Shown here piece after piece: positions 5,388-25,711 of a DNA stretch of 28,823 nucleotides (positions are counted from its first letter, which is position 1; every line of letters starts with the position of its first letter). This stretch comes from Candidatus Eiseniibacteriota bacterium (lineage in GTDB: Bacteria; ARS69): the NCBI GenBank assembly GCA_052390515.1, contig JBQTGV010000094.1:1-28823 (forward strand). The letters run 5' to 3'. The notes below the pieces were generated by a model that worked only from the letters and a program-made list of their open reading frames with translations, searched no databases and had not been told where the DNA came from. Both the position numbers and the translations under genes were made by a program.

Positions 5388-6854
5388 GTGTCGCTGCCTC
5401 GGCTGATTGTACCGCTTGCCATTGCCGCGTACGCCGCGGCCCTTCTCGCCGCGGGCGGACGGATCGCCGTGTTCGAGGACGAGGCGATCATCGTGGCGAA
5501 CGCCGGAGAGCGGGATCCAAGCGAGGTCCTGGCCGGCTACTTCCAGGCGAAAGCCGTCCTGGAGCACCCCCCGCTCTACGACCTGTTCCTCGGGGCCTGG
5601 ATCCGCGCCGCCGACCCCTCGCCGGCCATGCTCCGCGCGCCCTCGATCCTCGCCTGGGGGGTGGGGGTCTGGCTGCTCGGGCTCTGCGCCCGGCGGGTCC
5701 TGGGGCGCGCGTGGCCGACAGTGCTCATCGCGCTGGCGTGGCCGCCCGGGCCCTTCTTCGCCGTTCCGGCCCACTGGGCCTGCTTCGCCTTCCTGACGGA
5801 GGCCGGGCTGCTGTGGGCCTGGTTCACTTGGCGCGCGACCGGCCGTCCGCGGGACCTGACGGCCGCCGTGGCGTTCGGGGTGGCGATGCTCTGGACCTCC
5901 TGGTTCGGCTGGGCCGTCGTCGCCGCGCTGGCGGCCTTCGCCCTGGCGGGACGCCCCCGGCCGCCTCTCGCGCCGCTCGGGCTGGCGCTCGGCGTGCTGG
6001 TGGCCGCGTTCCTGCCGCTCGCGCCGGAGTTCGTGCGGGAGCTCGGCGCGGGGACGGACCTGGCGCGCGGGCCCGGCGCCGTCCTGGCCGACGCCGCGTA
6101 TCACGGCTGGGCGCTTCTCGCCGGCGAAGCGGTAGCGCCCTGGACCGTCCCGGCGATTCTCGTGGCCGCCGGGATGGCCGGGCTTGCCGCCGCCGCCTGG
6201 CGGGCGCGGGCCGTGCGAAGGCCGCTGGCGCTCCTCGGTGTGCTTTTCGCCGCCGGCGTCGTCTCCGGCATCCTCAACGCGAAGCGCCTCGTCATCTTCG
6301 CCCCGTTCCTGCTGCTCTCGCTCGGCGCCATCGTCGAGGGCACCACCCGGCGGCGGCTCGCCCTCGGATCCCTCGCCGTCGTGTTCGGCACCGCCTGGAT
6401 CGGTGCGCTCACCGGATCGTGGTGGGGGACGTGGCGATACGTCGAGCCCTGGGGCGAAGTCGTCGCGGACGCGTTCGCCCGCGCCCGGCCCGGTGACGTC
6501 GTGCTCTGCAACCACCCCTCGTTCTGGTTCCGCGCGCGCTTCGAGCGGGGCTGGACCGACTGGGGGCGCGTGCTTCCCGAGGCGGCCTTCGACGACGGCG
6601 GCATCGTCTGCTCCCCGCTGGTCGGCTGGCGCGACGTCGTCGAGCGGCGGAACCACGTCATCCACGTCCGGACCGTCGTGAACCCGGATCGAAGCGAGGA
6701 GCAGCGCTTGCTCGAAGAGCACCTGGCAGGGGAGTTCACGCTCTCGACGCCGCGGCGCTGGATCGAGGACCGCGCGTCCGGCCTGAAGAACCGGTTCGTG
6801 GGAAACCAGCCGCGGTGGCGGATCGAGATCACCGAGTGGACGCGCGGCGGGTAG
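5388..6854 (+). CDS. Polytopic membrane glycosyltransferase (GT-C / ArnT-PMT-like)
   Basis: FEDEA and EHPPLYDL..LRAPS motifs after the first TM helix, and many TM segments. Start GTG 5388 inferred. Confidence 0.7.
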   Translation: MSLPRLIVPLAIAAYAAALLAAGGRIAVFEDEAIIVANAGERDPSEVLAGYFQAKAVLEHPPLYDLFLGAWIRAADPSPAMLRAPSILAWGVGVWLLGLCARRVLGRAWPTVLIALAWPPGPFFAVPAHWACFAFLTEAGLLWAWFTWRATGRPRDLTAAVAFGVAMLWTSWFGWAVVAALAAFALAGRPRPPLAPLGLALGVLVAAFLPLAPEFVRELGAGTDLARGPGAVLADAAYHGWALLAGEAVAPWTVPAILVAAGMAGLAAAAWRARAVRRPLALLGVLFAAGVVSGILNAKRLVIFAPFLLLSLGAIVEGTTRRRLALGSLAVVFGTAWIGALTGSWWGTWRYVEPWGEVVADAFARARPGDVVLCNHPSFWFRARFERGWTDWGRVLPEAAFDDGGIVCSPLVGWRDVVERRNHVIHVRTVVNPDRSEEQRLLEEHLAGEFTLSTPRRWIEDRASGLKNRFVGNQPRWRIEITEWTRGG

Positions 6855-6925
6855 CGTGCTCGGAGCGCGGAACGCCGGCCGCGCCGAGTCGGGCCCACGC
6901 GCCGAGGCAACGGCCACAACGCGAA

Positions 6926-6955
6926 GCGCCCCGGGCTCCTTCGAGTCCGGGGCGC
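6926..6955 (-). terminator. Hairpin terminator after peptide 1, also convergent with the GT-C gene
   Basis: GCGCCCCGGACTC-GAAG-GAGCCCGGGGCGC-TT; conserved after peptides 2 and 3. Confidence 0.65.
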
Positions 6956-6981
6956 CGCCGCCTCTTCCTGCCGCCTCGTTC

Positions 6982-7152
6982 TTAGCGGTTCCGGACGCTG
7001 ATCGACTGAACCGCCAGGTCGCCGAAGTGGTCGCCGCTCTCGCCCGGGTCGCCGATCGGCTGCGCGGGAGTTCCCGTCCCACCGACCACCTTCACCAGTT
7101 CCTCGTTCGCCAGGGCCTTCACCGTCGTCTCGTTCAGGTTCTTGCGCGTCAT
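6982..7152 (-). CDS. Double-glycine-leader precursor peptide 1 (56 aa)
   Basis: MTRKNLNETTVKALANEELVKVVGG|TGTPAQPIGDPGESGDHFGDLAVQSISVRNR. GAGGAG RBS and an L-x2-EEL-x2-V-x-GG leader. Confidence 0.85.
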   Translation of the reverse strand: MTRKNLNETTVKALANEELVKVVGGTGTPAQPIGDPGESGDHFGDLAVQSISVRNR

Positions 7153-7216
7153 TTTCGGATCTCCTCTGGTTTGGTTTCTCGTTCGCCTTTGCAACCCTGT
7201 TCGATGCACGCCTCCG

Positions 7217-7245
7217 TACGCGGGGCGGCTCGGGGTTCTCGGGGG
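7217..7245 (-). promoter_or_regulatory. Putative ECF promoter motif A, copy 1
   Basis: CCCCCGAGAAC-N14-CGTA; five copies with identical spacing in the window. Confidence 0.75.
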
Positions 7246-7339
7246 GGTGTGCCCGGGGGCGCCGCATCCGCAGGACGGCCGAAGGGGAGGCGACCGGCGC
7301 CGGGACGGGCGACAGCTCCTTGTAGCTGGTGGTCTCGTC

Positions 7340-7831
7340 CTAGCTGGCCGTCTCGTCCAGGGCAGTCTCGATCGCCCGGCGCAGCTTGGCGTCCTTGGGG
7401 TCGAGGCGGGGGTCGAAGCGGGAGATGACCCGGCCGTCGCGGGCGACGAGGTACTTCGTGAAGTTCCAGCTGGGGTCGGGGTGATCCCGGGTGAGGAAAC
7501 GGTAGATCTCGTCCTTCCCGCGGCCCTTCACTTTGCGCTTCGCGAAGAGTGGGAAGCTCACGGCGTAGCGGGAGGAGCAGAAGGCGCGGATCTCTTCCGG
7601 ACTACCGGGCTCCTGGCCACCGAAGTCGTTGCTGGGGAAGCCGAGCACCGTGAAACCCCTCGGCGCAAGTTCTCCGTGCAGTGCCTCGAGGGCGGTGTAC
7701 TGCGGTGTCAGACCGCAGCGGCTGGCCAGGTTGACGACGAGGCAGACCCGCCCGGCGAATGTCGAGAGGGGCGCCGGGGAGCCTTCCAGGGTGTCGGTCG
7801 TGAAATCGAAGAACGACGGCGGCGCGGGCAA
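7340..7831 (-). CDS. gpx: Glutathione peroxidase family protein (Cys type)
   Basis: VVNLASRCGLTPQY, LGFPSNDFGGQEPG and WNFTKYLV motifs. TTG start 7831 after GGAGG. Catalytic codon is TGC, not Sec. Confidence 0.93.
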   Translation of the reverse strand: MPAPPSFFDFTTDTLEGSPAPLSTFAGRVCLVVNLASRCGLTPQYTALEALHGELAPRGFTVLGFPSNDFGGQEPGSPEEIRAFCSSRYAVSFPLFAKRKVKGRGKDEIYRFLTRDHPDPSWNFTKYLVARDGRVISRFDPRLDPKDAKLRRAIETALDETAS

Positions 7832-7908
7832 GGGCGAACCTCCGGACGGCGCAGAATAACCCGAACGCGTCGGCGCCGCGAAGCCGGGGGAACCCCCCGG
7901 ACGGCAAA

Positions 7909-7938
7909 GCGCCCCGGACCCTTTCGAGCCCAGGGCGC
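7909..7938 (-). terminator. Hairpin terminator after peptide 2
   Basis: GCGCCCTGGGCTC-GAAA-GGGTCCGGGGCGC-TTT. Confidence 0.65.
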
Positions 7939-7962
7939 CGGCGCCAGCCCGCTCGGTCTGCC

Positions 7963-8130
7963 TTAGCGGCCCGGCTTGGAGAACGCCTGCCACGCCATCT
8001 CGCCGAAGGCCTCGCCGGTCTCGGCCGGGTCGCCGATCGGCTGCTCGGGGGTGCCCGTCCCGCCGACCACCTTCGCCAGTTCCTCGTTCGCCAGGGCCTT
8101 TACCGTCTCGTTCAGGTTCTTGCGCGTCAT
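7963..8130 (-). CDS. Double-glycine-leader precursor peptide 2 (55 aa)
   Basis: MTRKNLNETVKALANEELAKVVGG|TGTPEQPIGDPAETGEAFGEMAWQAFSKPGR; GAGGAG RBS. Confidence 0.85.
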   Translation of the reverse strand: MTRKNLNETVKALANEELAKVVGGTGTPEQPIGDPAETGEAFGEMAWQAFSKPGR

Positions 8131-8194
8131 TTGAGTCTCTCCTCTGGTTTGGTTTCTCGTTCGCCTTTGCAACCCTGTTCGATGCACGCCTCCG

Positions 8195-8223
8195 TACGGT
8201 GGCCGGGCGGGGGTTCTCGGGGG
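8195..8223 (-). promoter_or_regulatory. Putative ECF promoter motif A, copy 2
   Basis: CCCCCGAGAAC-CCCCGCCCGGCCAC-CGTA. Confidence 0.75.
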
Positions 8224-8273
8224 GGTCGGGGCGAGGGAAGTTCGACGTCCTGGGAGGCCGGCCCCAACGCGAA

Positions 8274-8304
8274 GCGCCCCGGGCTCCTTCGAGTCCCGGG
8301 GCGC
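8274..8304 (-). terminator. Hairpin terminator after peptide 3
   Basis: GCGCCCCGGGACTC-GAAG-GAGCCCGGGGCGC-TT. Confidence 0.65.
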
Positions 8305-8330
8305 CTCCGCCTCTTCCTGCCCCCTCGTTC

Positions 8331-8495
8331 CTAGCGGTTCCGGACGCTGATCGACTGGACCGCCAGGTCGCCGAAGTGGTCGCCGCTCTCGCCCGGGTCG
8401 CCGATCGGCTGCGCGGGGGTTCCCGTCCCGCCGACCACCTTCGCCAGTTCCTCGCTCGCCAGGGCCTTCACCGTCTCGAACCGATTGCGCGTCAT
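8331..8495 (-). CDS. Double-glycine-leader precursor peptide 3 (54 aa)
   Basis: MTRNRFETVKALASEELAKVVGG|TGTPAQPIGDPGESGDHFGDLAVQSISVRNR. Core identical to peptide 1 with only synonymous DNA changes. Confidence 0.85.
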   Translation of the reverse strand: MTRNRFETVKALASEELAKVVGGTGTPAQPIGDPGESGDHFGDLAVQSISVRNR

Positions 8496-8559
8496 TTTCG
8501 GATCTCCTCTGGTTTGGTTTCTCGTTCGCCCTTGCATCCCTGTTCGATGCACGCCTCCG

Positions 8560-8588
8560 TACGGGGGGGAGCTCGGGGTTCTCGGGGG
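8560..8588 (-). promoter_or_regulatory. Putative ECF promoter motif A, copy 3
   Basis: CCCCCGAGAAC-CCCGAGCTCCCCCC-CGTA. Confidence 0.75.
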
Positions 8589-8663
8589 AGATGCAGCGCT
8601 GGCAGACAACGGCGTCGCCTCTGGGGCCGCGCGATGGAGGACATCCTTCGGCTACACTGGTCG

Positions 8664-9983
8664 TGGACAATCGTCCTAGGAGGTCGCGTCGACGCCGCCA
8701 GCTATCCCCCCGGAAACTCGACTCTGGGCGCGGCTGCGCTGGCGGCGGGCCCTCTGGGCTGCCGTGCTTCTCGCTGCGGCTGGTCTCTTTGTGAGTTGGA
8801 TGTTGATGCCGATTCCGGCGAGCTTACGGGCACAGGGGAGTGTCACGTGGTTTCGGGCGAGCACATCGCGCGCAGTCGCGCCAGCCAACGTCGCGGGCGC
8901 GCCGGCCATCCGTGCGGACAGTGTTTGCATGACGGTGTTTGGTCCCATAGAAGCGTTGGTGTTTGCGGACTCAGGGTGGAGCACTCAGGCGGCTGACATT
9001 TCATTCCTAGGCACGAGCCTAGGGGCAGCCAATGACTCGACGTTCCCAGCTGACATCGAGTTTGACGGGGCGAGGGTGGACGAGCACCCGTGTCGCTACG
9101 CGGCGGCGTTGCGCGCGACGCTCTCTTCGCGGGAGATATGGCGTTCTGGCTCCACCGCACTGACACGCTGCATCTAATCGGGCCACAGGTGACACCGACG
9201 GTGGATGTGGTTGATCCGACGCTCCTCTGGGCATTGCCGTACGAAGCCGAACTGATTGTCGCATGGACTGAGCGAGGCGTCCCCGCTGCCGTGTCCGCGC
9301 GGTTACCCGACGAGTTCTTACTGCTTTCACCTGAGGCCGTACTGGCGAAGCCAGGTCACAGCCTGGCTATTGCGGGTGCAGGAACGGCGTGCTTCCGGTT
9401 CACACCCCAAGCAGACTCTACGGACGAACAGCGCACTACGCTCGTGTTGAACATCCCAGAGCTGGAGTTCAACACGTTCGGTGGACAGGTACGCGTGGGC
9501 GCTGTGCTCGCCGAGGGTGTATTCGGGGGGAACGCGGTCCTGACCCAGAAGCTGTATGTCGTTCCTTATGCGGGAACAGAGCCATTCTCCTTCGCGGTGT
9601 CGCAGGTCTCGGGCGATAGTCTCGCGGTTCAGTGGCTAGCCCGCACTGGTGGAGCCAGGGAAGTGTGCGCCTATGGATCGGGACTTGTCGCGCTTGTGGG
9701 GACAGAGCAACACACCCTCGGCGCCCTGGACGACATCGAGTTCATTGGCGATCTCGTCTTCTCCGTCGTATGGGAGGCGCCGCAGCTCGCGCAGTTGAGC
9801 GTGGTTGGTCGCGTTAGCTCATGTAAGCGGCATGGTCAGCAGATACTCTCGTCCAGGTGGGGGGCGTTGTCTGACGAGGTGCGTGGTGGGATTGCGGGTG
9901 GAGTGGCCGCTGTTTTGCTCACCGTGGTGATAGGGTCGCTCCGCGGCCGCACTCTGCTCGACTGGTTTGTACGACGCGTGTGA
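8664..9983 (+). pseudogene. Lower-GC hypothetical membrane-anchored protein, apparently frameshifted (ORF pieces 8764-9177 and 9090-9983)
   Basis: Visibly more A/T-rich than the flanks. An N-terminal TM (LWAAVLLAAAGLFVSWML) and a C-terminal TM (GIAGGVAAVLLTVVIG) lie in different frames, and the first TM frame has no start codon upstream of it. Confidence 0.45.
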
Positions 9984-10122
9984 CGGTTGCAGAGTGCCAA
10001 TCTGGAGCAACGTTGCACGTCTGTGAGCCCCGTAAGGTGAGCGCCAGGAATGCCCCGGTCTACAGGTCCGACTCACGCCGAGTTCGACCCGCGGCTCCCT
10101 CAATGTCTGGGGTGCGATGCGC

Positions 10123-10845
10123 TCACTCCGGCACGCGCAACCTCAAGGAGAACCACCCCGCGGTGACGTCCTCGAACTCGGCAAGGAAGTGAGAGGCTCC
10201 CTCGACCGCTTCGAGACGCGCGGTCCGCTCCGGCGCGTCCTTCCCGGTGATGAGCACGACCTCGCCGCCGGGCTTGCCCTCGTCGACGATCACCGAGATC
10301 GAGCGCCGCCGCGCGTCGACCACCACTTCGCCGACCTTGCGCCCGCCGATCCGCAGGTCCAGCCGCGCCACGGCGCTCGTCCGCGCATCGAGCCGACCGG
10401 CTTCCTCCAGCGCGGCCAGCGCCGCGCGCTCGTCGCCCGAGGCGCAGTGGGCCGACGCGCGCTCCGCGAGACGAGCCGCTTCGCCCTCGTCCCCGGGCGC
10501 GCCGACGCCGCCGTACGCCGGCCGGAACGCCGCCTCGAACCCGCCGAGTCCGTGCGCGGTCTCCGCCACGCGGTCGAGAGCCGCCGTCGCCAGGCGCTTC
10601 GCGCCGTCGAGCATCCCGCGGACGACCACGTCCATCGCCCCCGGCACTGGCGCCATCCGCGCGGTCATCTCGTCGACGAACCCGGACCAGGAACCCTCGA
10701 AGTCGCTGCGGATCCGCCGCACCGCCGCGTACCGCTGCGCGCAGGCGCCGCAGCCGTCGAGGTGCGAGAACAGCCCCTCCGCCTCGGCCGGGCTCGTTCG
10801 CCCGGCGGCGAACGTGATCAGATCTTCCTGGGTGGGGTGCCGCAT
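10123..10845 (-). CDS. Zinc-finger (zf-HC2/ZAS) anti-sigma factor, predicted soluble
   Basis: MRHPTQEDL...HLDGCGAC (H-x3-C-x2-C), no clear TM helix, GGAGAGG RBS, directly downstream of the sigma gene. Confidence 0.82.
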   Translation of the reverse strand: MRHPTQEDLITFAAGRTSPAEAEGLFSHLDGCGACAQRYAAVRRIRSDFEGSWSGFVDEMTARMAPVPGAMDVVVRGMLDGAKRLATAALDRVAETAHGLGGFEAAFRPAYGGVGAPGDEGEAARLAERASAHCASGDERAALAALEEAGRLDARTSAVARLDLRIGGRKVGEVVVDARRRSISVIVDEGKPGGEVVLITGKDAPERTARLEAVEGASHFLAEFEDVTAGWFSLRLRVPE

Positions 10846-10904
10846 GGTTCCTCTCCGCGTGTGGGGCGCCCCGGCCGTGCCGGGCGGCGCCCTCGTCTGC
10901 CCCC

Positions 10905-11870
10905 TTACGCGCCGCCCTCCCGGGTTCTCGGGGGGTCCGGAAGCGGCAGCCAGCGGGTGGAGGCCGGATCCTCGAATACCTTCCGGATCCGGTTCTTCAC
11001 CGAGTGGGTCCAGTCGGAGACCGATCGCCGCGGATCCTCACCGAAGTACTCCTGGAGCTGTGCCGATCCCACGCTCCTCTCCGCCACCATCCGCCAGCGC
11101 TCGGCCGAGGCCGGGTCCCGGGCGAAGAGTTCCCGTCCGGTCATGGCCAGCCGCCCGTCCAGCGGCTGCCTCACCCTCGCCAGGTACTCGGGATCCAGCC
11201 GCCCGGAGACGGCCAGGTCCTCCAGCATCCCGTTCGCCGCCGGCTCGAGATCCTGCGGCCCGACCTCCCGCACGACCCGGTCCGGATCCCCGGTGATCGG
11301 GACCTTCACCGTCACGGCATCGCCCTTCCGCTGGTCCTTGCCCCAGACGAGGATGCTGTACCCGAAGGTGACCTGCTGGTGAGGATAGCCGCCCCAGCGC
11401 AGGAACGTCTCCAGCAGCTCGAGGAAGACCCGCGAGGGGCCCTCCGCCCCGGGGTCGGCGAAGCGGCCTTCGCCCATGGCCCGGCGAAAGGCCAGCGGCA
11501 GGTCCTTCATCTCGAGGGCCGACAGCTCCGTCGTCTCCGCGTCGTCTCCCTCGTCGTCCAGGGAGCCCACGAGATCACGCCGGCCGTAGAGGAAGCGCTT
11601 CACGACGCTTCGCGCCAGACCCTTGGCGAACGTGACGAACGCGTACGACGGGTCGTACTTCTCAAGGCGCCGGAACAGGTAGATGCGGACTTCCTGCAGC
11701 ACCTCGTCGACTTCGACGTGAGGCGCGCTGCGCAGCGCTCCGCGCAGCAGGTTCGTCAGGTCCCGCTCGACCGCCGCCCAGAGCCGGTCGAACGCGCGGG
11801 AATCCCCGGCCACGACCTTGCGCACGAGCTCGGCTTCCGCTGGCGAGGCCTGCGTCGTCTCGCTCGTCAC
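10905..11870 (-). CDS. Atypical ECF-type sigma-70 factor (321 aa)
   Basis: Region 2-like: ELVRKVVAGDSRAFDRL...VDEVLQEV...LEKYDPSYAFVTF. C-terminal HTH-like SAQLQEYFGEDPRRSVSDWTHSVKNRIRKVF. GGAGG RBS before GTG. Confidence 0.75.
   Translation of the reverse strand: MTSETTQASPAEAELVRKVVAGDSRAFDRLWAAVERDLTNLLRGALRSAPHVEVDEVLQEVRIYLFRRLEKYDPSYAFVTFAKGLARSVVKRFLYGRRDLVGSLDDEGDDAETTELSALEMKDLPLAFRRAMGEGRFADPGAEGPSRVFLELLETFLRWGGYPHQQVTFGYSILVWGKDQRKGDAVTVKVPITGDPDRVVREVGPQDLEPAANGMLEDLAVSGRLDPEYLARVRQPLDGRLAMTGRELFARDPASAERWRMVAERSVGSAQLQEYFGEDPRRSVSDWTHSVKNRIRKVFEDPASTRWLPLPDPPRTREGGA
10906..10934 (-). promoter_or_regulatory. Putative ECF promoter motif A, copy 4, inside the sigma 3' end and upstream of the anti-sigma
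   Basis: CCCCCGAGAAC-CCGGGAGGGCGGCG-CGTA; the CGTA overlaps the sigma TAA stop. Confidence 0.72.
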
Positions 11871-11900
11871 GTCGGCCGCCCCTCCGTGCGGGCTTCCACG

Positions 11901-13379
11901 TCAGCCCCTCTCCGCGGGCGCGTCGATGCGCCGCGACATCGTCACGTCCCGCGGGCGGTTCCACTCACGGTCCAGCCGCGCGACGAGCGCCGATGCGTCG
12001 CAGCCGGAGGCCTCCAGCACCTTGCGCACGTTGCGGCTCGGGCTGTCCAGCACGGCCCAGAGCACGTCGCCTTCCTCGACGACCGCCGAGCCGCGGTTGC
12101 GCGCGTTGGACCGAGCCGTCTCCCGCGTGACGCGGTGGCTCGCTGTCTCTTCGCCCGGACCCTGGTGGTGCTCCTGCGGCAGGCTCTTCTCGATGATGTT
12201 GCAGACCGCCTGCGTCCGGCTCCCGCAGGACTCCAGCATGCGATGGATGAGCGGCCCCTCCGCCGCGCACAGACCGTACAGGATGTGCAGCGTCTCGCGG
12301 GAGCGTGCGCCGCAGCGCTCCCGGAGCGCCTCGGCGGCCCAGTACGCCGCCTGCACCGTGGCTTCGTTGGCCGGCGAGAGCGGGCGAACGCCGCCGCGCG
12401 GCGGACGGGACGCGCGCACGTCCACGGCGTGCACGGGGCCGGCGCGCCACATCCGGGCGCGCGCCGCGGCCACGGCCTCGTCGAACGTGAAGCGATGATC
12501 GCCCGCGCAGACGCTCGTGCTCTCGAGGGTCAGGATCTCGCCGGCGGCCGCGCGGGCGGCAAGGTCGAGGCCGTCGGCCAGCAGCGGGCGATGTCGTTCG
12601 CCCGCGTCCGCCCAGGCGCCGATCCACGCGTGCGTCGGAGCGCCGGACGTCTCTCCCTCGAAGAGGATCAGCGGACCGAGCCCCACGGACTCGAGACACG
12701 CGGCGAAGAGCAGCGTCAGGTCGAGGCAGTTGCCGCGGCCGCGGCGTGCGCCCGGCTCGCCGGCGATCTCTTGCGGCGAACGCACCGTCTGGTGCGACGT
12801 GCCGCACTCCGGGTCGAGGGTGACGCGAGGGGTCTCGTAGGCGATCTCGTGCGCCGACGCGAGGAGCTCGTGCAGCGCGCGCATCACCGCGGCGACGGCC
12901 TCGCGGGAGCCGCCGCGGGCGATCTCCGGGAGCGAACCGGGGCCCGCGTCCGCCACGGTGCGGAAGACCACGTCGTCGCCGGACGAGGCATGGGCGGCAA
13001 CCAGGCGCCGCGCCTCGGGGTGGTGCGGCCACTCGCGCGCGGGAAGCAGCGCCACCGGAACCCGCGCGACCGGCGTCCCCTCGAGGCGCACCTCGAGACC
13101 GGCGGCCATGCGGCGCGGGAGCGCTTCGAGGCGGTCGGTCGTCGTGGGAGAGAGCGGCGAAGGCACGACCGGGTTTCCGGCGCGCACCGCGAGCGTCCAG
13201 TCGAGCTCGGGGATCCGCAGCTCGGCGAGCGCAGGAGGCCGCTGCCCACCGGACGGCGCATGCAGCGCCGTCACGGGCGACATTCCCGCCAGCGCCTCGG
13301 CGTACCCGTACGCAGGCAGGTACTCGACCACGAGCCCGGCGGCTCCGCTGGGATGGACGACGGTCGTTTTCACCCGCAC
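11901..13379 (-). CDS. Transglutaminase/papain-like Cys-His domain fused to a C-terminal ClpN-like repeat domain
   Basis: RGNCLDLTLLFAACLESVGL-PL...THAWIGAW...LESTS catalytic-type motif. C-terminal AYWAAEALR...ETLHILYGL...ARSNARNRGSAVVEEGDVLWAVL resembles Clp N-terminal repeats. Confidence 0.7.
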   Translation of the reverse strand: MRVKTTVVHPSGAAGLVVEYLPAYGYAEALAGMSPVTALHAPSGGQRPPALAELRIPELDWTLAVRAGNPVVPSPLSPTTTDRLEALPRRMAAGLEVRLEGTPVARVPVALLPAREWPHHPEARRLVAAHASSGDDVVFRTVADAGPGSLPEIARGGSREAVAAVMRALHELLASAHEIAYETPRVTLDPECGTSHQTVRSPQEIAGEPGARRGRGNCLDLTLLFAACLESVGLGPLILFEGETSGAPTHAWIGAWADAGERHRPLLADGLDLAARAAAGEILTLESTSVCAGDHRFTFDEAVAAARARMWRAGPVHAVDVRASRPPRGGVRPLSPANEATVQAAYWAAEALRERCGARSRETLHILYGLCAAEGPLIHRMLESCGSRTQAVCNIIEKSLPQEHHQGPGEETASHRVTRETARSNARNRGSAVVEEGDVLWAVLDSPSRNVRKVLEASGCDASALVARLDREWNRPRDVTMSRRIDAPAERG

Positions 13380-13522
13380 CTCGCTGCGGGGGGAATCCCG
13401 GATCGGACCGCGAGAGTGTATCGCGTTCCGCGCCGCCCTTCTCGACCTTGTTTGGATTCTCGCCTCCGGCTAGTCTCGGCCCGATCCGCCTCCTCGCCTC
13501 GTTCCAGGAGTCACGTCCGCCG

Positions 13523-14110
13523 ATGACCGTGCTCTCGGCCGCGCTGCTTCTCTTCCTGGTGCTGGATCCCTTCGGGAACATCCCGTTCTACCTGTCCGCG
13601 TTGCAGCAGGTACCGCCGGCGCGGCAGAGGCGGGTCGTCGTCCGCGAGCTGATCTTCGCCCTCGTGGCGCTGGTGGTGTTCCTGTTCGGCGGGCGCTTCG
13701 TTCTGGGGCTGCTCTCGATCTCCGAGCCGGCGCTCACGACGGCGGGCGGCATCATCCTCTTCCTGATCGCCATCCGCATGATCTTCCCGCCGGCTCACTC
13801 CGGGAGCGAGACCGTCGAGGGCGAGCCGTTCATCTTCCCGCTGGCCGTGCCATACGTGGCCGGGCCGTCGGCGCTCGCGGCGGTGATGTTCCTCACCAGT
13901 CGTGAACCGGAGCGATGGCCGGAGTGGCTGGCGGCGGTCTTCGCCGCGTGGCTGGCCACGGGGGTCATCCTGTTCCTGGCCAGCGCGCTCCGTCGCCGGC
14001 TCGGCCAGCGGGGTCTCATCGCCGCGGAGCGGCTGATGGGCATGGTCCTCGTCACGATGGCCGTGCAGATGCTGATGGGGGGGCTCCACGACTTCTGGGT
14101 CGATTCCTGA
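13523..14110 (+). CDS. MarC-family integral membrane protein
   Basis: LLFLVLDPFGNIP...AGGIILFLIAIRM...PLAVPYVAGP...ERLMGMVL; AGGAG RBS. Confidence 0.92.
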   Translation: MTVLSAALLLFLVLDPFGNIPFYLSALQQVPPARQRRVVVRELIFALVALVVFLFGGRFVLGLLSISEPALTTAGGIILFLIAIRMIFPPAHSGSETVEGEPFIFPLAVPYVAGPSALAAVMFLTSREPERWPEWLAAVFAAWLATGVILFLASALRRRLGQRGLIAAERLMGMVLVTMAVQMLMGGLHDFWVDS

Positions 14111-14132
14111 GCCGGGCTCTGAGGCCCGGCTC
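14109..14132. terminator. Hairpin between the convergent MarC-family gene and peptide 4
   Basis: GAGCCGGGC-TCTGAG-GCCCGGCTC, perfect 9-bp stem. Confidence 0.5.
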
Positions 14133-14194
14133 GTCTCCTCTTCGATTCCGCTTCGCCTGCCCGCTTCCTGCTCTGCTCTCTCTTCGCCGGTTGC

Positions 14195-14362
14195 TTACTC
14201 GCTGACGGCAACGCTGCTGCGCAGCGGGATGATGTCGCCGGCTTGGTCGTCCAGCAGACGGCTCTCGCGCAGCGGGACCATGTCGGCGGATCCGCCGGTG
14301 ACGTGGGTCAGCTCGGCTTCGGTCAGGTTCCTCATGCTCGCCTTCATCGCCTGGGAGTTCAT
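14195..14362 (-). CDS. Double-glycine-leader precursor peptide 4 (55 aa)
   Basis: MNSQAMKASMRNLTEAELTHVTGG|SADMVPLRESRLLDDQAGDIIPLRSSVAVSE. AAGGAG RBS and the same upstream motif. Confidence 0.8.
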   Translation of the reverse strand: MNSQAMKASMRNLTEAELTHVTGGSADMVPLRESRLLDDQAGDIIPLRSSVAVSE

Positions 14363-14421
14363 CGTCGTGCTCCTTCCGGTTCGGGGTTCGGGTTGTGACT
14401 CGCTTTCGAGCCTCGACCCGG

Positions 14422-14450
14422 TACGCGGGTGGGGGCCGGGTTCTCGGGGG
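14422..14450 (-). promoter_or_regulatory. Putative ECF promoter motif A, copy 5
   Basis: CCCCCGAGAAC-CCGGCCCCCACCCG-CGTA. Confidence 0.75.
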
Positions 14451-14465
14451 GGCCGCTCCACGCGG

Positions 14466-14527
14466 GGTCGGACGGCGGGACCTGCGGCCACCCGAGGTCG
14501 GACGGCCGGAACTGCGCCTCCACCCGG
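14466..14527. repeat. Imperfect ~30-bp tandem repeat in the divergent intergenic region
   Basis: GGTCGGACGGCGGGACCTGCGGCCACCCG / GGTCGGACGGCCGGAACTGCGCCTCCACCCG. Confidence 0.55.
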
Positions 14528-14586
14528 GGGTGCCTTGCCGGAGCCGCGGAGCCGCTCTAAGCTCGCGGCCCCGAGGGAGGAAGACG

Positions 14587-16233
14587 ATGATCCGAACGAC
14601 CTGGACCCGAGGTTTCTGGCTCGCGCTCGTCCTGGCGGGCGCCGCTGCGGGCCGCGCCGACGAGGCCCCTCCGCCGCGCTTCGAGGGGCTGGGGCCGTCG
14701 GGGCGAACGATCACGACCAAGTCCCCCGAGGCTCAACGCTGGTTCGACCAGGGGCTCGGCTTCTACTGGGGCTTCCATCACGAGGAGGCCATCCGTTCGT
14801 TCGACGCCGCCCTGCGCTACGACCCGACCTGCGCGATGGCCTATTGGGGAAAGGCGCTCTCGCTCGGCCCCAACATCAACAACACGGCGATGGATGCTGC
14901 CGCCTCGGAAGCCGCGTGGGACAACGTGCGGGGCGCGGTCGAGCAGTCCGGCAAGTGCTCCCCGACGGAGCGGGACCTGATCCGCGCGCTCGCGACGCGC
15001 TACGCGGACCCGGCCCCGGAGGACCGCAGCACGCTCGACCGGGCCTACGCGGATGCCATGCGCGCGGTGTACGAGGCGCACTCGGACGACGCGGACGTGG
15101 CCGCGCTCTTCGCCGAGTCCTTGATGGACCTTCGACCCTGGGATCTGTGGTCCTCGAACGGTGAGCCGCGGCCGGAAACTCCGGAGATCCTGAGCACGCT
15201 CGAGGCGGGCCTCCGCCTCCGCCCGGACCACCCTGGCCTGAATCACTTCTACGTCCACTCGTGCGAAGCGTCGCCCGAGCCGGGGCGGGCCCTCGCCGCC
15301 GCGGACCGGCTGAGGAACCTGTGTCCGGGGGCGGGTCACCTCGTGCACATGCCATCGCACATCGACATCCGCCTCGGTCACTACGACGACGCGATCGTCG
15401 CGAACCAGCGTGCGGTCGCCGCCGACCTGGATTACCTGGCGAAGGGTGGGGTCAGCGGCTTCTACACGCTGTACCGCGCGCACAACTATCACTACATCGC
15501 GTACGCCTCGATGTTCGCGGGGCGCAAGGCGACGGCGATGCAGGCCGCCCGCGACCTGACGCAGCAGCTGCACCCCGACGTCGTCCGCCGCTACCGCGAC
15601 GTCCTCGACGGCTTCCTGGCCACGCCCGTGCACGTGATGATCCGCTTCGGACAGTGGGAGGAGCTGCTGGCCGAGCCGGCGCCGCCCGACGACGTGCCGG
15701 TCACGGCCGCGTTCTGGAGGTACGGCCGGACCGTCGCGCTCGCGGCACTCGGGCGCGTCGAGGAGGGCGCGGCCGAGCTGGCCAAGCTCCGGGAAGCGGC
15801 GGAGCGGGTCCCGGAGACCGCGTACATCGGCAACAACCCGGCGCGGGTCGTGCTCGACGTCGGGCTGCCCTTCGCCGAGGGTGAGCTCACCTACCGCCGC
15901 GGCAACGTGGAGCGCGCCTTCGAGCTGCTGCGCATCGCCGTGGAGCGGGACGACGCGCTCAAGTACGACGAGCCGTGGGGGTGGATGGAGCCCGTCCGGC
16001 ACGCGCTCGGCGCCCTGCTCCTCGAGCAGGGACGTCTGGAGGAGGCCGAGGCGGTCTACCGCGAGGACTTGCGCATCCACCCCAACAACGGGTGGGCGCT
16101 GCACGGGCTCGCCGAGTGCCTGCGGCGGAGCGGCCGCGCCGAGGAAGCGGCGAGGACGGAGGGACTCTTCCGCGTGGCCTGGAAGGACGCCGACGTCGTC
16201 ATCGCCGCGTCATGCTACTGCCGGAAGTCGTGA
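14587..16233 (+). CDS. Secreted tetratricopeptide-repeat protein
   Basis: GGAGG RBS and signal peptide. AQRWFDQGL...FHHEEAIRSF...AMAYWG, HPGLNHFYVH, GHLVHMPSHI, C-terminal SCYC. Confidence 0.85.
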   Translation: MIRTTWTRGFWLALVLAGAAAGRADEAPPPRFEGLGPSGRTITTKSPEAQRWFDQGLGFYWGFHHEEAIRSFDAALRYDPTCAMAYWGKALSLGPNINNTAMDAAASEAAWDNVRGAVEQSGKCSPTERDLIRALATRYADPAPEDRSTLDRAYADAMRAVYEAHSDDADVAALFAESLMDLRPWDLWSSNGEPRPETPEILSTLEAGLRLRPDHPGLNHFYVHSCEASPEPGRALAAADRLRNLCPGAGHLVHMPSHIDIRLGHYDDAIVANQRAVAADLDYLAKGGVSGFYTLYRAHNYHYIAYASMFAGRKATAMQAARDLTQQLHPDVVRRYRDVLDGFLATPVHVMIRFGQWEELLAEPAPPDDVPVTAAFWRYGRTVALAALGRVEEGAAELAKLREAAERVPETAYIGNNPARVVLDVGLPFAEGELTYRRGNVERAFELLRIAVERDDALKYDEPWGWMEPVRHALGALLLEQGRLEEAEAVYREDLRIHPNNGWALHGLAECLRRSGRAEEAARTEGLFRVAWKDADVVIAASCYCRKS

Positions 16234-16397: not shown

Positions 16398-17732
16398 CTA
16401 ACCGAACATCCGGCCCACGTCCATCACCGTGACGGACAGCATCAGCAGCACGAGGATGGCGAAGCCGATCTGCTGCAGGATGACGCGTACGCGGATGGAC
16501 GGCGGCCGGCGGGTGACGATCTCCACGAGGTAGAGCGCAAGGTGCCCGCCGTCGAGGACGGGAATGGGCAGCAGGTTGAAGACGGCGAGCTGCGTGGAGA
16601 TGAACGCCAGCAGCGAGAGGAACGAGAGGACGCCCCAGCGGGCCGCTTCGCCGAAGAGCTGGGCCATGCGCACCGGTCCGCCGAGCCCGCCGTCGTCCTC
16701 GCCGCGGAACAGTGCGTTGAATATCATGACGGGAAGCCGCGGGATCAGCTCGAGGACGCCGCGAGTCAGCGTCCACGTCTCGCGGAAGCCACCGGCGAGC
16801 GCCGCGAGCGGCCCGATCGACTTCCGCTCCACGGGCTGCACGATGCCGATTCGCCCGACGACTTTGTTGCCGCCGTCGGCCTCGGCAATCTCCTCGCCCT
16901 CCGGCGTGACGCTGGCGGACTCGGTCACCCCGTCGCGCTCGTAGACGAGAGAGACTTCGCGGTCGGGCCGCTCGGAGACGAGCTCCTGTAGCTCGGACCA
17001 GCGGTCCACGGCTTGGCCGTCCACCGACACGATGCGGTCGCCTTCACGGAGGCCGGCGACCCAGGCGGGGCTGCCCCGCTTCACGCCGCCCACGACCGGC
17101 TCGACGAAGAACGAGATGCCGAAGCCCTCGGGGGCGTTCGCCTCTTCGGCCAGCGCTCCCGCCAGAACGACAGGGCCGCCGTCCCGCATCACCTCGATCT
17201 GCACGCGTCCTCCCGGACCGACCTCGGAGAACCGCGCGTCCGTGTCGAGCCAGTTCTCCACCGGCTTGCCGTTCACCGAGCGGATCACGTCGTCGGCCGC
17301 CAGACCGATCTTGGCTGCGACCGAGCCTTCCTCGACCCCGCCGATGCGCGGCTCGGGGAAGACGCGCTCGCCGTCCGCCCAGATGACCGCGGCGTAGAGC
17401 AAGACCGCGAGCGCGTAGTTCATCGCCGGGCCGGCCAGCACGATGGCGGAACGGACGCCGACGCGCTGGGACAGGAACTCGTCCGGTGCGGCGTCGCGGG
17501 GCTCCTCGGGGTTGTCCCCGGCGAACTTCACGTAGCCGCCGAACGGGATGGCGCAGATCGACCAGCGGGTGTCCCCGCTGGTGCGCCCGAGCAGCTCCGG
17601 CCCGAACCCGATGGAAAAGCGCAGCACGCGCACGCCCGCCCGCCGCGCGACCCAGTAGTGCCCCCACTCGTGCACCAGCACGAGCAGGGACAGCGCGAGG
17701 ACGAAGAAGAGCAGCGGTTCGACGAACGTCAC
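16398..17732 (-). CDS. rseP: RIP metalloprotease RseP
   Basis: HEWGH motif, two PDZ domains, NLLPIPVLDGGH. GTG start overlaps the dxr stop. Confidence 0.95.
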   Translation of the reverse strand: MTFVEPLLFFVLALSLLVLVHEWGHYWVARRAGVRVLRFSIGFGPELLGRTSGDTRWSICAIPFGGYVKFAGDNPEEPRDAAPDEFLSQRVGVRSAIVLAGPAMNYALAVLLYAAVIWADGERVFPEPRIGGVEEGSVAAKIGLAADDVIRSVNGKPVENWLDTDARFSEVGPGGRVQIEVMRDGGPVVLAGALAEEANAPEGFGISFFVEPVVGGVKRGSPAWVAGLREGDRIVSVDGQAVDRWSELQELVSERPDREVSLVYERDGVTESASVTPEGEEIAEADGGNKVVGRIGIVQPVERKSIGPLAALAGGFRETWTLTRGVLELIPRLPVMIFNALFRGEDDGGLGGPVRMAQLFGEAARWGVLSFLSLLAFISTQLAVFNLLPIPVLDGGHLALYLVEIVTRRPPSIRVRVILQQIGFAILVLLMLSVTVMDVGRMFG

Positions 17733-18922
17733 CTGGCACGCCCCGTGGCTCGGGTGGCTCCGATGCGGGCGAGAACGGCCGATCTGGCCCGCTCCCGCGT
17801 GAACCCGTCGACCCGGCCGAGGTTCTCGAGCGTCGCCCGGTCGTTCGCTTCCGCCGTCTCGAGGCACTCCTCGATGACCCCCGGAATCTCGGGGAACAGG
17901 ATCTCGCCGTCCAGGAAGGCCTCCACCGCGACCTCGTTCGCCGCGTTGAGGACCGCAGGGGCCGTCCCCCCGGCCAGCCCGGCCTCGCGCGCGAGCCGCA
18001 GGCAGGGGAAGCGCTGCTCGTCGGGCTCCTCGAACGTGAGCTGCCCGGCGGCCACCGGATCGAACGGGGGCAATCCGCTCGCGAGGCGCTCCGGGAAGGT
18101 CAGCGCGTACTGGATCGGCAGCCGCATGTCCGGCGTCGAGATCTGCGCCATGACGGAGTGATCGACGAACTCGACCATCGAGTGGATCAGCGACTGCGGA
18201 TGCACGACGACCTCGATGCGCTCGTAGGGAACCCCGAAGTACCAGTGCGTCTCCAGCACCTCGAGCCCCTTGTTCATCAGCGTCGCCGAGTCCACGGAGA
18301 TCTTGCGGCCCATGCGCCACGTAGGGTGGTCCAGCGCGTCCTCCGGACGAATGGAGTCGAAGTCGCGGGCGGGCAGGTCACGGAACGGTCCGCCGGAAGC
18401 GGTCAGCAGGATTCGCCGGACCTCGCGGCCGTCGTTCCCCAGGAGGCACTGGTGGATGGCGCTGAGCTCGCTGTCCAGCGGGAACAGACGTGCGCCGGTT
18501 TCCGCGGCGGCAGCCATGACCAGCTCGCCCGCGACGACCAGCGCCTCCTTGTTGGCGATCGCCACCGCCGTGCCGCGCTCGAGCGCGGCGAGCGTGGGGG
18601 CCAGACCCCGGCTTCCCACGAGAGCGTTCACGACGAGATCGACACCGTCCGCTCCGGCGATCTCCCGCGCGGCTTCCCTGCCTGCGACGATGTGCACGCC
18701 GCCGCCCAGGACTTCGCGCAGCCGTGATCCGAACCGTTCGTCGGCCACTCCCACGAGGCGCGGCCGGAACTCCCGCACCTGCTCGACGAGCTCCTGCCAC
18801 CGCGTCCCCGCCACCAGAGCCTCGACCCGGAACCGCTCCGGCCAGCGCCGCACCACGTCGAGCGTGCTGCACCCGATCGACCCGGTGGAGCCGAGGATGG
18901 CCAAGGTCTTGGTGCAGCTCAC
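17729..18922 (-). CDS. dxr: 1-deoxy-D-xylulose-5-phosphate reductoisomerase
   Basis: ILGSTGSIG, ANKE, LTASGGPFR, HPTWRMGRKISVDSATLMNKGLE. Confidence 0.97.
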   Translation of the reverse strand: MSCTKTLAILGSTGSIGCSTLDVVRRWPERFRVEALVAGTRWQELVEQVREFRPRLVGVADERFGSRLREVLGGGVHIVAGREAAREIAGADGVDLVVNALVGSRGLAPTLAALERGTAVAIANKEALVVAGELVMAAAAETGARLFPLDSELSAIHQCLLGNDGREVRRILLTASGGPFRDLPARDFDSIRPEDALDHPTWRMGRKISVDSATLMNKGLEVLETHWYFGVPYERIEVVVHPQSLIHSMVEFVDHSVMAQISTPDMRLPIQYALTFPERLASGLPPFDPVAAGQLTFEEPDEQRFPCLRLAREAGLAGGTAPAVLNAANEVAVEAFLDGEILFPEIPGVIEECLETAEANDRATLENLGRVDGFTRERARSAVLARIGATRATGRAR

Positions 18923-18933
18923 CCGCTCCCCCC

Positions 18934-19776
18934 TCACCGGAACACCACGAAGGTGAGGAAATAGTACGTGACCGGAGCGGAGAATAGCAGACCGTCGAAG
19001 ATGTCCATGACTCCTCCGTGGCCGGGCACGAGCTGCGAGGCGTCCTTCACCGCGGCGTCCCGCTTGAGCAGGGATTCGGCAAGATCCCCGAGCTGCGTGA
19101 AAACGCCCACCAGGGCGCCCAGCACGCCCGTCTCGACGGCGCCGAGGAGCGGCGCCCCGGTGGCGTCGTGAACGAACCACGCCCGGCCGGCGTAGGCCAG
19201 GGCCACCGCGCTGACGAAGCCCGCGGCCGCCCCCTGGACCGACTTCATCGGGCTGACCCGGGGGAACAGCTTGTGCTTCCCGAAGGCCCTGCCGACGAAG
19301 TAGGCCCCGGAGTCGCAGCCCCAGGACATGAGGAAGACGTAGAGCAGGAGGGCCGAGCCGATCGAGTACGGAGCGCCGATCTCGCGGGGCAGCTCCCGCA
19401 GCAGCACGAAGTACGACGTGAGCCAGCCCACGTAGAGCACGCCGAAGAGCGTCGTGGCGATGTCGTGGATCGGGAACGCCACCTTCGCCCGGAACAGCTC
19501 GCGCAGCATGGTCCAGACGACGAACCCGGCGAGCAGGAACCCCACCGGCTCCGTTCCGCGCCAGTAGGTGAGCACGCACAGGATGGAGGCCGCGGCGATG
19601 CCCGTCTTCTTCGAGGGATTCACTCCCTTCGCCTCCATGAGGCGGTAGAACTCCGCGCTCGCCGCGATCAGGATGGCGAGCACGAGGAAGAGGAAGGGAA
19701 GACCGCCGATCCGCGAAAGAATGATCAAGAACGGAATGAAGACGACCGCGGTCGCCACGCGGGGAGCGGTGGCCAC
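18934..19776 (-). CDS. cdsA: Phosphatidate cytidylyltransferase
   Basis: DSGAYFVGRAFGKHKL-PRVSP-KS, GDLAESLLKR...KD...PGHGG. Confidence 0.95.
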   Translation of the reverse strand: MATAPRVATAVVFIPFLIILSRIGGLPFLFLVLAILIAASAEFYRLMEAKGVNPSKKTGIAAASILCVLTYWRGTEPVGFLLAGFVVWTMLRELFRAKVAFPIHDIATTLFGVLYVGWLTSYFVLLRELPREIGAPYSIGSALLLYVFLMSWGCDSGAYFVGRAFGKHKLFPRVSPMKSVQGAAAGFVSAVALAYAGRAWFVHDATGAPLLGAVETGVLGALVGVFTQLGDLAESLLKRDAAVKDASQLVPGHGGVMDIFDGLLFSAPVTYYFLTFVVFR

Positions 19777-19778
19777 GC

Positions 19779-20573: not shown

Positions 20574-20576
20574 TCG

Positions 20577-22562
<1,986 letters not shown>

Positions 22563-25696: not shown

Positions 25697-25711
25697 CCTA
25701 GGAGAGGGCGA

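Follow-up and report, generated by a model that had tools for sequence, protein, structure and literature searches.

A five-copy motif as the putative cognate promoter of an unannotated ECF-like sigma factor in a Candidatus Eiseniibacteriota genome

The stretch of DNA analysed here (hereafter the window) comprises the 28,823 nucleotides of contig JBQTGV010000094.1 from the Candidatus Eiseniibacteriota assembly GCA_052390515.1. It carries five exactly spaced copies of a two-box motif, CCCCCGAGAACCC-N12-CGTA, confined to 7.3 kb around the gene of a 321-amino-acid protein (P0001; 10905-11870, minus strand) that resembles sigma factors of the extracytoplasmic function (ECF) type. On the basis of the sequence comparisons and predicted structures described below, these copies are very probably promoters read by RNA polymerase carrying this adjacent sigma factor. 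An earlier note, prepared from the sequence without database searches, had described the motif as a likely cognate ECF promoter, and this description is now supported by the fixed position of the copies on the coding strand and by the presence of a related motif beside homologous sigma factor genes in several phyla.

The five motif copies and their conservation

A search of the window that allowed up to two mismatches returned five matches to CCCCCGAGAACCC-N12-CGTA, all of them on the minus strand and without a single mismatch, at the coordinates that the earlier note had listed. Dinucleotide-preserving shuffles gave a chance expectation of 0.02, and none of 100 shuffles reached five. Copy 5 (14422-14450) is located in a 224-nucleotide divergent intergenic region between a TPR gene and the gene of peptide 4, of which it is the putative promoter (ATG at 14362), and copy 4 (10906-10934), which has a homologous position in other loci, is the putative promoter of the anti-sigma gene (ATG at 10845). 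Copy 3 (8560-8588), copy 2 (8195-8223) and copy 1 (7217-7245) stand at the 5′ edge of duplicated cassettes 3, 2 and 1, respectively, as putative promoters of peptide 3 (ATG at 8495), peptide 2 (ATG at 8130) and peptide 1 (ATG at 7152). Every copy is found on the coding strand, and the downstream start codon, which is preceded by a Shine-Dalgarno sequence, follows the end of CGTA at 59 nucleotides for peptide 4, at 60 for the anti-sigma gene and at 64 for each of peptides 3, 2 and 1. The distance from GAGAAC to CGTA is 14 nucleotides in all five copies, and the preceding C-run includes five invariant C residues and is longer in four copies.

A scan of the whole genome assembly (4,266,055 bases in 223 contigs, 70% GC, with the window as contig C94), which had been proposed as a check, found the full pattern only at the five window sites, all of them ahead of gene starts; thus, the motif is not one that is common at positions unrelated to gene starts. 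When the assembly was scanned with the fuzzy pattern CCCGAGAACCC-N12-CGTA, five sites were recovered with no mismatch, none with one, 15 with two and a background cloud with three, and a ribosome-binding site with an open reading frame 59-64 nucleotides downstream was observed for none of the 15 two-mismatch sites. Two additional regulon members were considered and rejected, namely the site at C26:87552, which lies inside an 841-amino-acid open frame (GC at third codon positions 0.90) on the opposite strand, and that at C176:28323, which is a lone C-run box without CGTA at the right distance. A consensus scan of positions 6800-14700 found no sigma-70-like promoter, and an Rfam scan of the same interval returned a single chance-level small nucleolar RNA row (E 0.92).

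The conservation of the copies was assessed in all 10 pairwise comparisons. The 13-nucleotide box was identical at 13/13 positions and CGTA at 4/4 in each of the 10 pairs, while the spacer was identical at 2-9 of 12 positions and the 30 nucleotides upstream at 7-15 of 30, the chance identity calculated from base composition being about 29%. Downstream, the first 59 nucleotides were identical at 20/20 and 35-37/39 positions in pairs among the three peptide cassettes, and at only 6-11/20 and 10-17/39 in pairs involving the anti-sigma or peptide-4 copy. The three cassettes can be aligned from the C-run onward but not upstream of it and, therefore, the duplicated unit starts at the motif. Within these cassettes, the spacer diverged while the boxes remained unchanged, despite the nearly identical paralogues. 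These identities bear out two observations of the earlier note, that the boxes and the 14-nucleotide spacing are invariant around a variable spacer and that duplication is insufficient to account for it.

Since the peptide-4 and anti-sigma copies are found outside the duplication and have unrelated flanks, duplication alone cannot explain the conservation, and this explanation was rejected. A broader version of it would see the repeats as resulting from cassette duplication, or as part of a mobile or recombination element, such as an insertion boundary, with no role in transcription. It is consistent with the fact that three copies mark the precise 5′ edge of a duplicated peptide cassette and with the interruption of the locus by a low-GC segment. 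Nevertheless, it leaves unexplained the two copies outside any duplication and the divergence of the cassette spacers but not of the boxes, and it is already contradicted by the comparative data presented in the next section, where the motif is conserved, in three reading frames, beside sigma homologues of 22-59% protein identity. It is, consequently, the most improbable of the alternatives considered here.

In the available part of the literature on ECF promoter recognition (PMC5758882), AAC at -35 and CGT at -10 are common to ECF promoters, CGTA is the SigW-selective -10 sequence, and the optimal spacers range from 14 to 17 bp. The GAGAAC-N14-CGTA arrangement of all five copies agrees with the former, as had been claimed when AAC and CGT were called ECF hallmarks. 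The accompanying claim of a spacer shorter than usual holds in part, given that 14 nucleotides (13 in several relatives) lies at or just under the low end; however, it is not anomalous against the 14-17 bp reported there (PMC5758882, available part), whose authors may count the spacer differently.

A further reading of the motif is as a site bound by a DNA-binding regulator (operator or activator), or as an RNA processing or protein-binding site, instead of a core promoter. Indeed, the nearly complete identity of the cassette 5′ leaders indicates that other cis elements exist, and copy 4 lies within a coding region. However, sigma recognition typically involves a pair of short boxes that keep a constant distance, around a spacer free to vary and without dyad symmetry, and the boxes fit the AAC/CGT hallmarks described in that source (PMC5758882, available part). 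Moreover, the orientation always agrees with that of the downstream gene, at a promoter-like distance, no other promoter candidate was found for the five transcription units, and the leaders have neither an Rfam family nor structure beyond that of shuffles (z +1.16, -0.72 and -0.46). A regulator or RNA site is, on this balance, improbable.

Related motifs beside homologous sigma factor genes

Loci carrying a relative of the sigma factor were compared, 11 from species-representative genomes and 19 from metagenome contigs, the genome records being those of Candidatus Eisenbacteria/Eiseniibacteriota, Poribacteria, Victivallales, Eubacteriales, Bacillota and Clostridiaceae, with GC contents of 31-73%. 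Where the sigma and anti-sigma genes meet, homologous loci of several phyla, with 35-73% GC, carry a related motif, CGAGAA[C/G/A]-N13/14-[C/T/G]GTA. It reads TCACGAGAAC-N13-CGTAG in L015 and L030, CACGAGAAG-N13-CGTAG in L013, CCCCGAGAAG-N13-CGTAG in L024, CGCGAGAAC-N14-GGTA in L026 and CACGAGAAC-N13-TGTA in L017, a locus of 35% GC. The motif is located 30-75 nucleotides before the anti-sigma start in L013, L015, L026, L030, L032 and L035.

In order to avoid circularity, the junctions were scored with a pattern taken from the window only (CGAGAAC, 13 or 14 nucleotides, CGTA) between -80 and +220 of the sigma stop codon, and all other 300-nucleotide intervals of the same locus, on both strands, served as controls; L036 and L041 held too little sequence for this scoring. 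A score of 10-11 out of 11 was obtained in 9 of the 30 loci, which correspond to seven non-redundant ones (L013, L015, L017, L024, L026, L030 and L032), because L026, L027 and L028 have the same sequence, and 0-4.9% of the control intervals of those nine loci match such a score. Additionally, when the stretch from 80 nucleotides ahead of the sigma stop to the start of the anti-sigma gene was examined on the sense strand, 11 of 18 loci carried an exact CGAGAA, and in the best-matching loci a [C/T/G]GTA follows it after 13-14 nucleotides. These junctions contain 12 occurrences, versus 1.15 expected at the frequency observed in the remainder of the loci (125 in 341 kb of strand). In the most distant loci, the motif was in some cases assigned by eye, and the argument rests on the scored-pattern and CGAGAA counts.

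Where the hexamer falls within the coding tail of the sigma gene, its reading frame differs between lineages, with all three frames represented: the window reads CCG AGA ACC (PRT), L013, L015 and L030 read CAC GAG AAC/G (HEN/HEK), and L026 and L024 read CGA GAA (RE, within PREP/PREV). Therefore, the constraint acts on DNA and not on protein. Conservation through protein coding at the sigma C-terminus was rejected for this reason and because four copies of the window are non-coding. In copy 4, which extends over the final nine codons of the sigma gene and its TAA stop, the TA of CGTA comes from this TAA, and the stop codon supplies the TA of the -10 box in four lineages. The C-terminal tails (…DPPRTLGRRA) of the sigma factors with 94% and 89% identity to P0001, P0004 and P0005 (the latter encoded on a 35-kb contig), would agree with conserved boxes in these two relatives as well. 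Across the family, a single C is kept before GAGAA (CAC-, CGC-, CCC- and CTC-GAGAA) and the base following CGAGAA varies in distant members (C, G, A or T); therefore, the -35 core of the family would be CGAGAA. Of the loci fetched, only L024, the one most closely related to the window, shares its long C-run, so that the extended -35 contact suggested in the earlier note is hypothetical.

Additional copies were detected in two of these loci. L026 has an extra CTCGAGAAC-N14-CGTA located 68 nucleotides ahead of a gene for a 46-amino-acid peptide, with a T-rich terminator after it, and L015 has two CGAGAACTC…[C/G]GTA copies ahead of genes for signal-peptide proteins. A loose scan of the L015 genome revealed only four sites that start with CGAGAACTC, three of them within 11 kb of the sigma gene.

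The comparative data bear directly on whether the motif could be the promoter of another alternative sigma factor, the neighbourhood of the 321-amino-acid protein being coincidental. The window does encode a second, canonical ECF sigma factor (about 25700-27100, plus strand; Sigma70_r2 59.7 bits, Sigma70_r4_2 51.3 bits), which is followed by a FecR-domain protein. Since further ECF-like sigma factors are encoded in the genome, AAC/CGT promoters are common to many ECFs with documented overlapping recognition (PMC5758882, available part), and the 321-amino-acid protein falls below the ECF hidden Markov model (HMM) cut-offs, such an assignment is conceivable. What stands against it is that the motif recurs at the junction of the homologues of this very sigma factor, across the GC range and phyla given above, and that five copies lie within 7.3 kb of its gene and none elsewhere in 4.27 Mb; the window search found no copy near the second ECF gene. 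Recognition by another sigma factor is, accordingly, held to be about as improbable as a regulator or RNA site.

The sigma factor and its conserved partners

From HMM searches, fold predictions and hhalign, P0001 can be read as an ECF-like sigma factor whose sigma-2 domain is joined through a long linker to a predicted sigma-4 domain that is split by an insertion of about 95 amino acids. About 50 full-length relatives, with 35-94% identity, were found in a collection of 5.8 billion proteins; they are almost all metagenomic and mostly named 'hypothetical protein', and their alignment reveals strongly conserved blocks outside the known sigma regions, namely GGYPHQQ, KVPVTGDPDRVV and DPRxSVxDWT. 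An AlphaFold model built from this alignment had a predicted local distance difference test (pLDDT) score of 85. Its sigma-2 domain superposed on region 2 of sigmaE (4lup_A, Foldseek) with a template modelling (TM) score of 0.80 and a root mean square deviation of 2.3 Å over 89 columns, at 30% identity. In a VIA search with the N-terminal domain, SigW was the best match (Z 12.9), AlgU (Z 12.2) and SigI6 (Z 8.4) also being among the matches. Additionally, hhalign aligned the P0001 profile with 12 canonical ECFs at a probability of 98.7%, the alignment covering sigma-2 and, of the region-4 helix-turn-helix, its first helix. By its predicted fold, thus, the sigma-2 domain is of the ECF type. Residues 99-145 of the predicted model are mostly of low confidence, with short helices, and no sigma-3 match was present among the reported matches.

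The C-terminal 182 residues, folded alone, reached a pLDDT of 90.2. In a VIA search with this isolated domain, sigma-4 domains made up 22 of the 24 top rows (Z 3.8-5.3), including those of SigB, CnrH, SigH, SigL, SigD region 4, BldN, sigmaE region 4 on -35 DNA, SigR region 4 and the SigC -35 domain. Each match aligns 57-75 residues, which are distributed over model residues 1-168, on both sides of the insertion. These matches give good support to a C-terminus with a predicted sigma-4 fold that is not canonical, as it would hold an insertion of about 95 residues (around residues 176-270). The ECF character attributed to this sigma factor is, therefore, retained as far as the fold is concerned, which is ECF-like, but not with respect to the ECF HMM cut-offs, below which the protein falls, nor to an intact sigma-4. 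With the whole model, a Foldseek search of the PDB yielded nothing at E ≤0.001, the best match (8.1e-03) covering sigma-2 only.

A profile of the C-terminal domain retrieved, among 1.84 billion, 554 representatives of 50%-identity clusters at E ≤0.001, 307 at 1e-10 and 98 at 1e-30, most of the sigma-family representatives having 290-360 amino acids. Longer forms of 750 and 1513 amino acids also occur among the representatives, and one protein, P0163, has no similarity to P0003, the partner described below. The family is sporadic, being present in 1 of 12 genomes of the GTDB phylum of the window, namely its own, and 41 related genomes gave just the sigma-2-region matches of generic ECFs (best E 3.2e-8). 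PADLOC assigned no family to the sigma factor, the anti-sigma factor, P0003 or three neighbours. Distant members of the sigma family (L017, L018, L031-L034, L038 and L039) end in C-x2-C-[KRN]-L-[RK]-x2-[PAS]-P-C, a motif that is absent from the clade of the window and that resembles the Cys-rich C-terminal extensions existing in some ECF groups.

Directly downstream of the sigma gene, P0002 (240 amino acids; 10123-10845, minus strand) carries an N-terminal H-x3-C-x2-C, with Pfam zf-HC2 at 21.2 bits against a cut-off of 22.2. In the alignment of its family, the H and both C residues are nearly invariant and a C-terminal VEGAxYLLAEF block is conserved, and no membrane segment was seen on reading the sequence. 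Homologues were found by tblastn downstream of a sigma homologue in 21 loci. P0002 is, from its sequence and position, the co-encoded anti-sigma candidate of P0001.

Immediately upstream of the sigma gene lies the gene of P0003 (492 amino acids; 11901-13379, minus strand), which combines a transglutaminase-like Cys/His core with C-terminal Clp-N-like repeats. It matched the NCBIfam model 'anti-phage protein ProA' over model positions 83-322 of 1903 (E 3.6e-26, 91 bits, far below the cut-off of 1500) and, faintly, a ClpB N-terminal model (NCBIfam, E 0.0086). C218 and H250 are invariant in the alignment, as in transglutaminase-fold proteases. No relative of solved structure was found by sequence, a weak structure-atlas lead (0.75) being the only one obtained, and nothing relevant to ProA was present among the titles and abstracts found in the literature. 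Homologues of P0003 occur beside sigma homologues in 17 loci (tblastn), and none was found with this query in L013, L015 and L030. The association of the three genes is also reflected in two apparent fusions, P0070 (768 amino acids), in which a P0003-like part (42% identity, E 1e-78) precedes the sigma factor, and P0100 (781 amino acids), in which the sigma factor precedes the anti-sigma part (E 6e-8). They may be true fusions or merged gene calls and, in both cases, they link the three genes to one another.

A complex of P0003 with the anti-sigma factor was predicted with a score of 0.55, the best of three controls scoring 0.00. The mark used for such scores is reached by 116 of 157 solved complexes and by 2 of 215 mismatched pairs, and scores of 0.60 or lower belong to 18 of the 157 solved complexes and to both passing mismatches. 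The runs agreed in at least 66% of contacts, with a pLDDT of at least 70 for the partner. This prediction weakly suggests such a complex and is regarded as a lead only. For the signal input of the system, the evident candidate is P0003, a conserved cytoplasmic protein.

Several results weigh against the assignment of the motif to P0001 as its ECF-like sigma factor. At the protein level, Pfam Sigma70_r2 scored 23.9 bits, just under its cut-off of 24, Sigma70_r4 and Sigma70_r4_2 gave no match even at E up to 1, and TIGR02937 (sigma70-ECF) reached 29.7 bits against a cut-off of 42.9, over residues 26-111 only. The Z of about 5 behind the sigma-4 assignment is low in absolute terms and derives from predicted models, and Foldseek found no match for the C-terminal domain in the PDB at E up to 0.001. 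At the DNA level, 21 of the 30 loci scored 9 or less out of 11, with more than 5% of their own control intervals equalling the score in 12 of them, and 7 of the 18 loci had no exact CGAGAA at the junction. The spacing differs by one nucleotide between lineages (13 versus 14), and the related loci are not independent samples. In four other genomes, scans with the loose pattern CGAGAAS-N12-14-BGTA gave counts like those of the reversed control, so that no regulon is definable in them. Finally, ECFs usually autoregulate, according to the available part of PMC7826278, and the window holds no motif copy upstream of the P0003-sigma operon. A degenerate CGAGAAG-N14-CGAT is present there at 13419-13444 (minus strand), about 40-45 nucleotides upstream of the P0003 start (13379 or 13373). 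Its agreement with the motif, at 8 of the 11 core positions, does not exceed the background, and it may represent either a weak promoter for the autoregulation of this operon or a chance occurrence.

Proposed circuit, peptide genes and relation to known systems

If the five copies are the promoters of P0001, the -35 element would be CGAGAAC with the C-run before it, read by the sigma-4 domain with its insertion of about 95 residues, and the ECF-type sigma-2 domain would recognise CGTA, 14 nucleotides downstream, as the -10 element. Transcription would start a few nucleotides past CGTA, resulting in leaders of about 50-58 nucleotides. The local regulon would be composed of four monocistronic genes for double-glycine-leader peptides, three of them ending in a hairpin, and of the anti-sigma gene, whose promoter would overlap the end of the sigma coding sequence. 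As no copy is found before the sigma gene, the circuit would be one of negative feedback, in which the sigma factor drives its anti-sigma factor without positive autoregulation, and its activation should be self-limiting because the anti-sigma gene is the only regulatory gene under the motif. A more complete scenario can be outlined, although it is considered unlikely in its entirety: a sporadic cytoplasmic three-protein switch in which P0003 would sense an intracellular signal and remove or cleave the soluble zf-HC2 anti-sigma factor, the split sigma-4 would dictate the CGAGAA -35 element and the 13-14-nucleotide spacing, and a self-limited pulse of exported peptides, acting as toxins or signals, would follow. 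Phage infection is a conceivable trigger, given the resemblance of P0003 to the anti-phage protein ProA in the N-terminal region of the latter.

On the minus strand, the locus begins after the divergent plus-strand TPR gene with copy 5 and peptide 4, followed by a convergent MarC-family gene (plus strand), P0003, the sigma gene, copy 4, the anti-sigma gene, a low-GC segment with plus-strand open reading frames, copy 3, peptide 3, copy 2, peptide 2, a glutathione peroxidase gene, copy 1, peptide 1 and the gene of a CHRD/T9SS-sorting-domain protein. All four peptide genes are on the minus strand. Peptide 4 (55 amino acids; 14195-14362), with a ribosome-binding site before its reading frame, has a leader ending in ...ELTHVTGG, a core unrelated to those of peptides 1-3 and no Pfam family. 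Peptide 3 (54 amino acids; 8331-8495), identified by sequence reading and cassette alignment, and peptide 2 (55 amino acids; 7965-8130) have double-glycine leaders with sub-threshold matches to Pfam ComC (E 0.12 for the former; E 0.01 and 16 bits against a cut-off of 20.4 for the latter), and peptide 1 (56 amino acids; 6985-7152) has the leader …NEELVKVVGG and the core TGTPAQPIGDPGESG…. The leaders were read directly from the sequence as …NEELxKVVGG and …EAELTHVTGG. The peptide family is narrow, with 11 clusters of close relatives that share the conserved core TGTPEQPIGDPGESG.

GC-rich hairpins follow peptide 3 (8271-8307, minus strand; fold z -3.92), where a likely terminator with a weak U-tract is present, peptide 2 (7902-7946, minus strand; z -3.18) and peptide 1 (6918-6964, minus strand; z -3.62), and none of 200 shuffles folded as well as these hairpins. 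Peptides 1-3, thus arranged, look like separate promoter-leader-reading frame-terminator units. Their leaders of about 64 nucleotides (7150-7216, 8131-8194 and 8496-8559, minus strand) are nearly invariant, and each includes a further in-frame start codon upstream, ATG for peptide 3 and TTG for peptides 1 and 2; in some relatives these upstream starts were chosen by gene callers, which resulted in the N-terminally extended peptides P0062-P0064. A 741-amino-acid open frame with Peptidase_C39 (120.7 bits) on contig C11 (about 26977-27360, minus strand) is a candidate exporter and processing enzyme, and the double-glycine peptides would probably need it. The assembly scan found no motif copy near this frame. 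A second, partial Peptidase_C39 match is present on contig C129.

The anti-sigma gene and peptide 3 are separated by a segment of lower GC (8700-9990; 62-67% against about 70-74% around it) with plus-strand open reading frames at 8764-9177, with an N-terminal hydrophobic segment, and at 9090-9983, with a C-terminal one. No family was found for them in Pfam, NCBIfam or PADLOC; as they overlap in different frames, a single frameshifted gene or an error of the assembly may be involved. The region from 4173 to about 6900 (minus strand), which directly follows peptide 1 and its hairpin on the downstream side, encodes a large protein with two CHRD domains, a FlgD-Ig-like domain and a T9SS sorting tail. 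A housekeeping cluster occupies 16398-21871 (minus strand), with an RseP-like M50 site-2 protease containing PDZ domains, followed by dxr, cdsA, uppS, frr and pyrH. As the anti-sigma factor seemingly has no membrane segment, a link to this protease is not expected.

Among known systems, the closest parallels are found in the group IV ECFs with class I zf-HC2 anti-sigma factors, such as SigW-RsiW of Bacillus subtilis, in which sigma-2 reads the -10 and sigma-4 the -35 element. Both share a -35 ending in AAC and a CGTA -10, and an anti-sigma gene with H-x3-C-x2-C directly downstream, and the N-terminal domain of P0001 finds its best structural match in SigW. However, P0001 differs in its 321 amino acids, missed by the ECF HMM cut-offs, and in a sigma-4 apparently split by the insertion with GGYPHQQ and KVPVTGDPDRVV; SigW promoters have an AAC-to-CGTA spacing of 16 nucleotides versus 14 in the window. 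Unlike in SigW-RsiW, the promoter is located between the sigma and anti-sigma genes and not upstream of the sigma gene, no membrane segment was seen on reading P0002, and a transglutaminase-like protein is a conserved third partner. The SigI/RsgI systems of Bacilli and Clostridia are similar in that sigma-2 is recognisable and the C-terminal, -35-reading domain misses the Pfam sigma-4 models. In contrast to them, the predicted C-terminal domain of P0001 superposes on canonical sigma-4 with an insertion, the anti-sigma candidate is of the zf-HC2 type and not RsgI, and the -35 element would be CGAGAAC, SigI promoters having an A-tract plus CCCCC. A SigI-C chain was not among the structures listed for the C-terminal domain, nor RsgI among the Pfam matches of P0002, such an absence from a list being compatible with either case. 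In the microbisporicin cluster, MibX/MibW reportedly provides an example of an ECF sigma factor controlling a small-peptide gene cluster. The window resembles it in having a local sigma/anti-sigma pair and a motif-defined regulon of nearby peptide genes, but it has no modification enzymes or cysteine-rich cores, its peptides carry double-glycine leaders, and the only C39 exporter candidate is on another contig.

The ECF classification 2.0, as described in the available part of PMC7826278, left out ECF-like sigma factors whose sigma-4 misses the Pfam model, including the SigI type. Since the sigma-4 of the P0001 family misses the Pfam models, this family would fall outside that classification and its promoters would, therefore, not be predicted there. 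A limited literature search, which included the available parts of PMC7826278 (without its supplements Text S2 and Table S2, where motifs per ECF group are given), PMC6372665 and PMC5758882, returned no description of the P0001 family or of the motif.

Taken together, the system belongs to a known kind, a sigma/anti-sigma system with its cognate promoter, and several of its features set it apart as a variant. From the sequences and models, these would include the split sigma-4, the conserved transglutaminase-like partner and a predicted soluble anti-sigma factor, to which are added a putative promoter that runs through the sigma gene's coding end into its stop codon, the absence of a copy upstream of this gene, and a regulon of peptides plus anti-sigma factor. 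The design is unusual in that the putative promoter is embedded in a coding 3′ end, with the stop codon as part of the -10 element, and that feedback would proceed through the anti-sigma factor only. A compact system set by sequence, with one sigma factor, one anti-sigma factor and five identical promoters, is a candidate orthogonal switch. For the family, the finding links a sharply defined promoter motif to unannotated sigma factors, with 554 cluster representatives, whose putative -35-reading domain would hold a large insertion.

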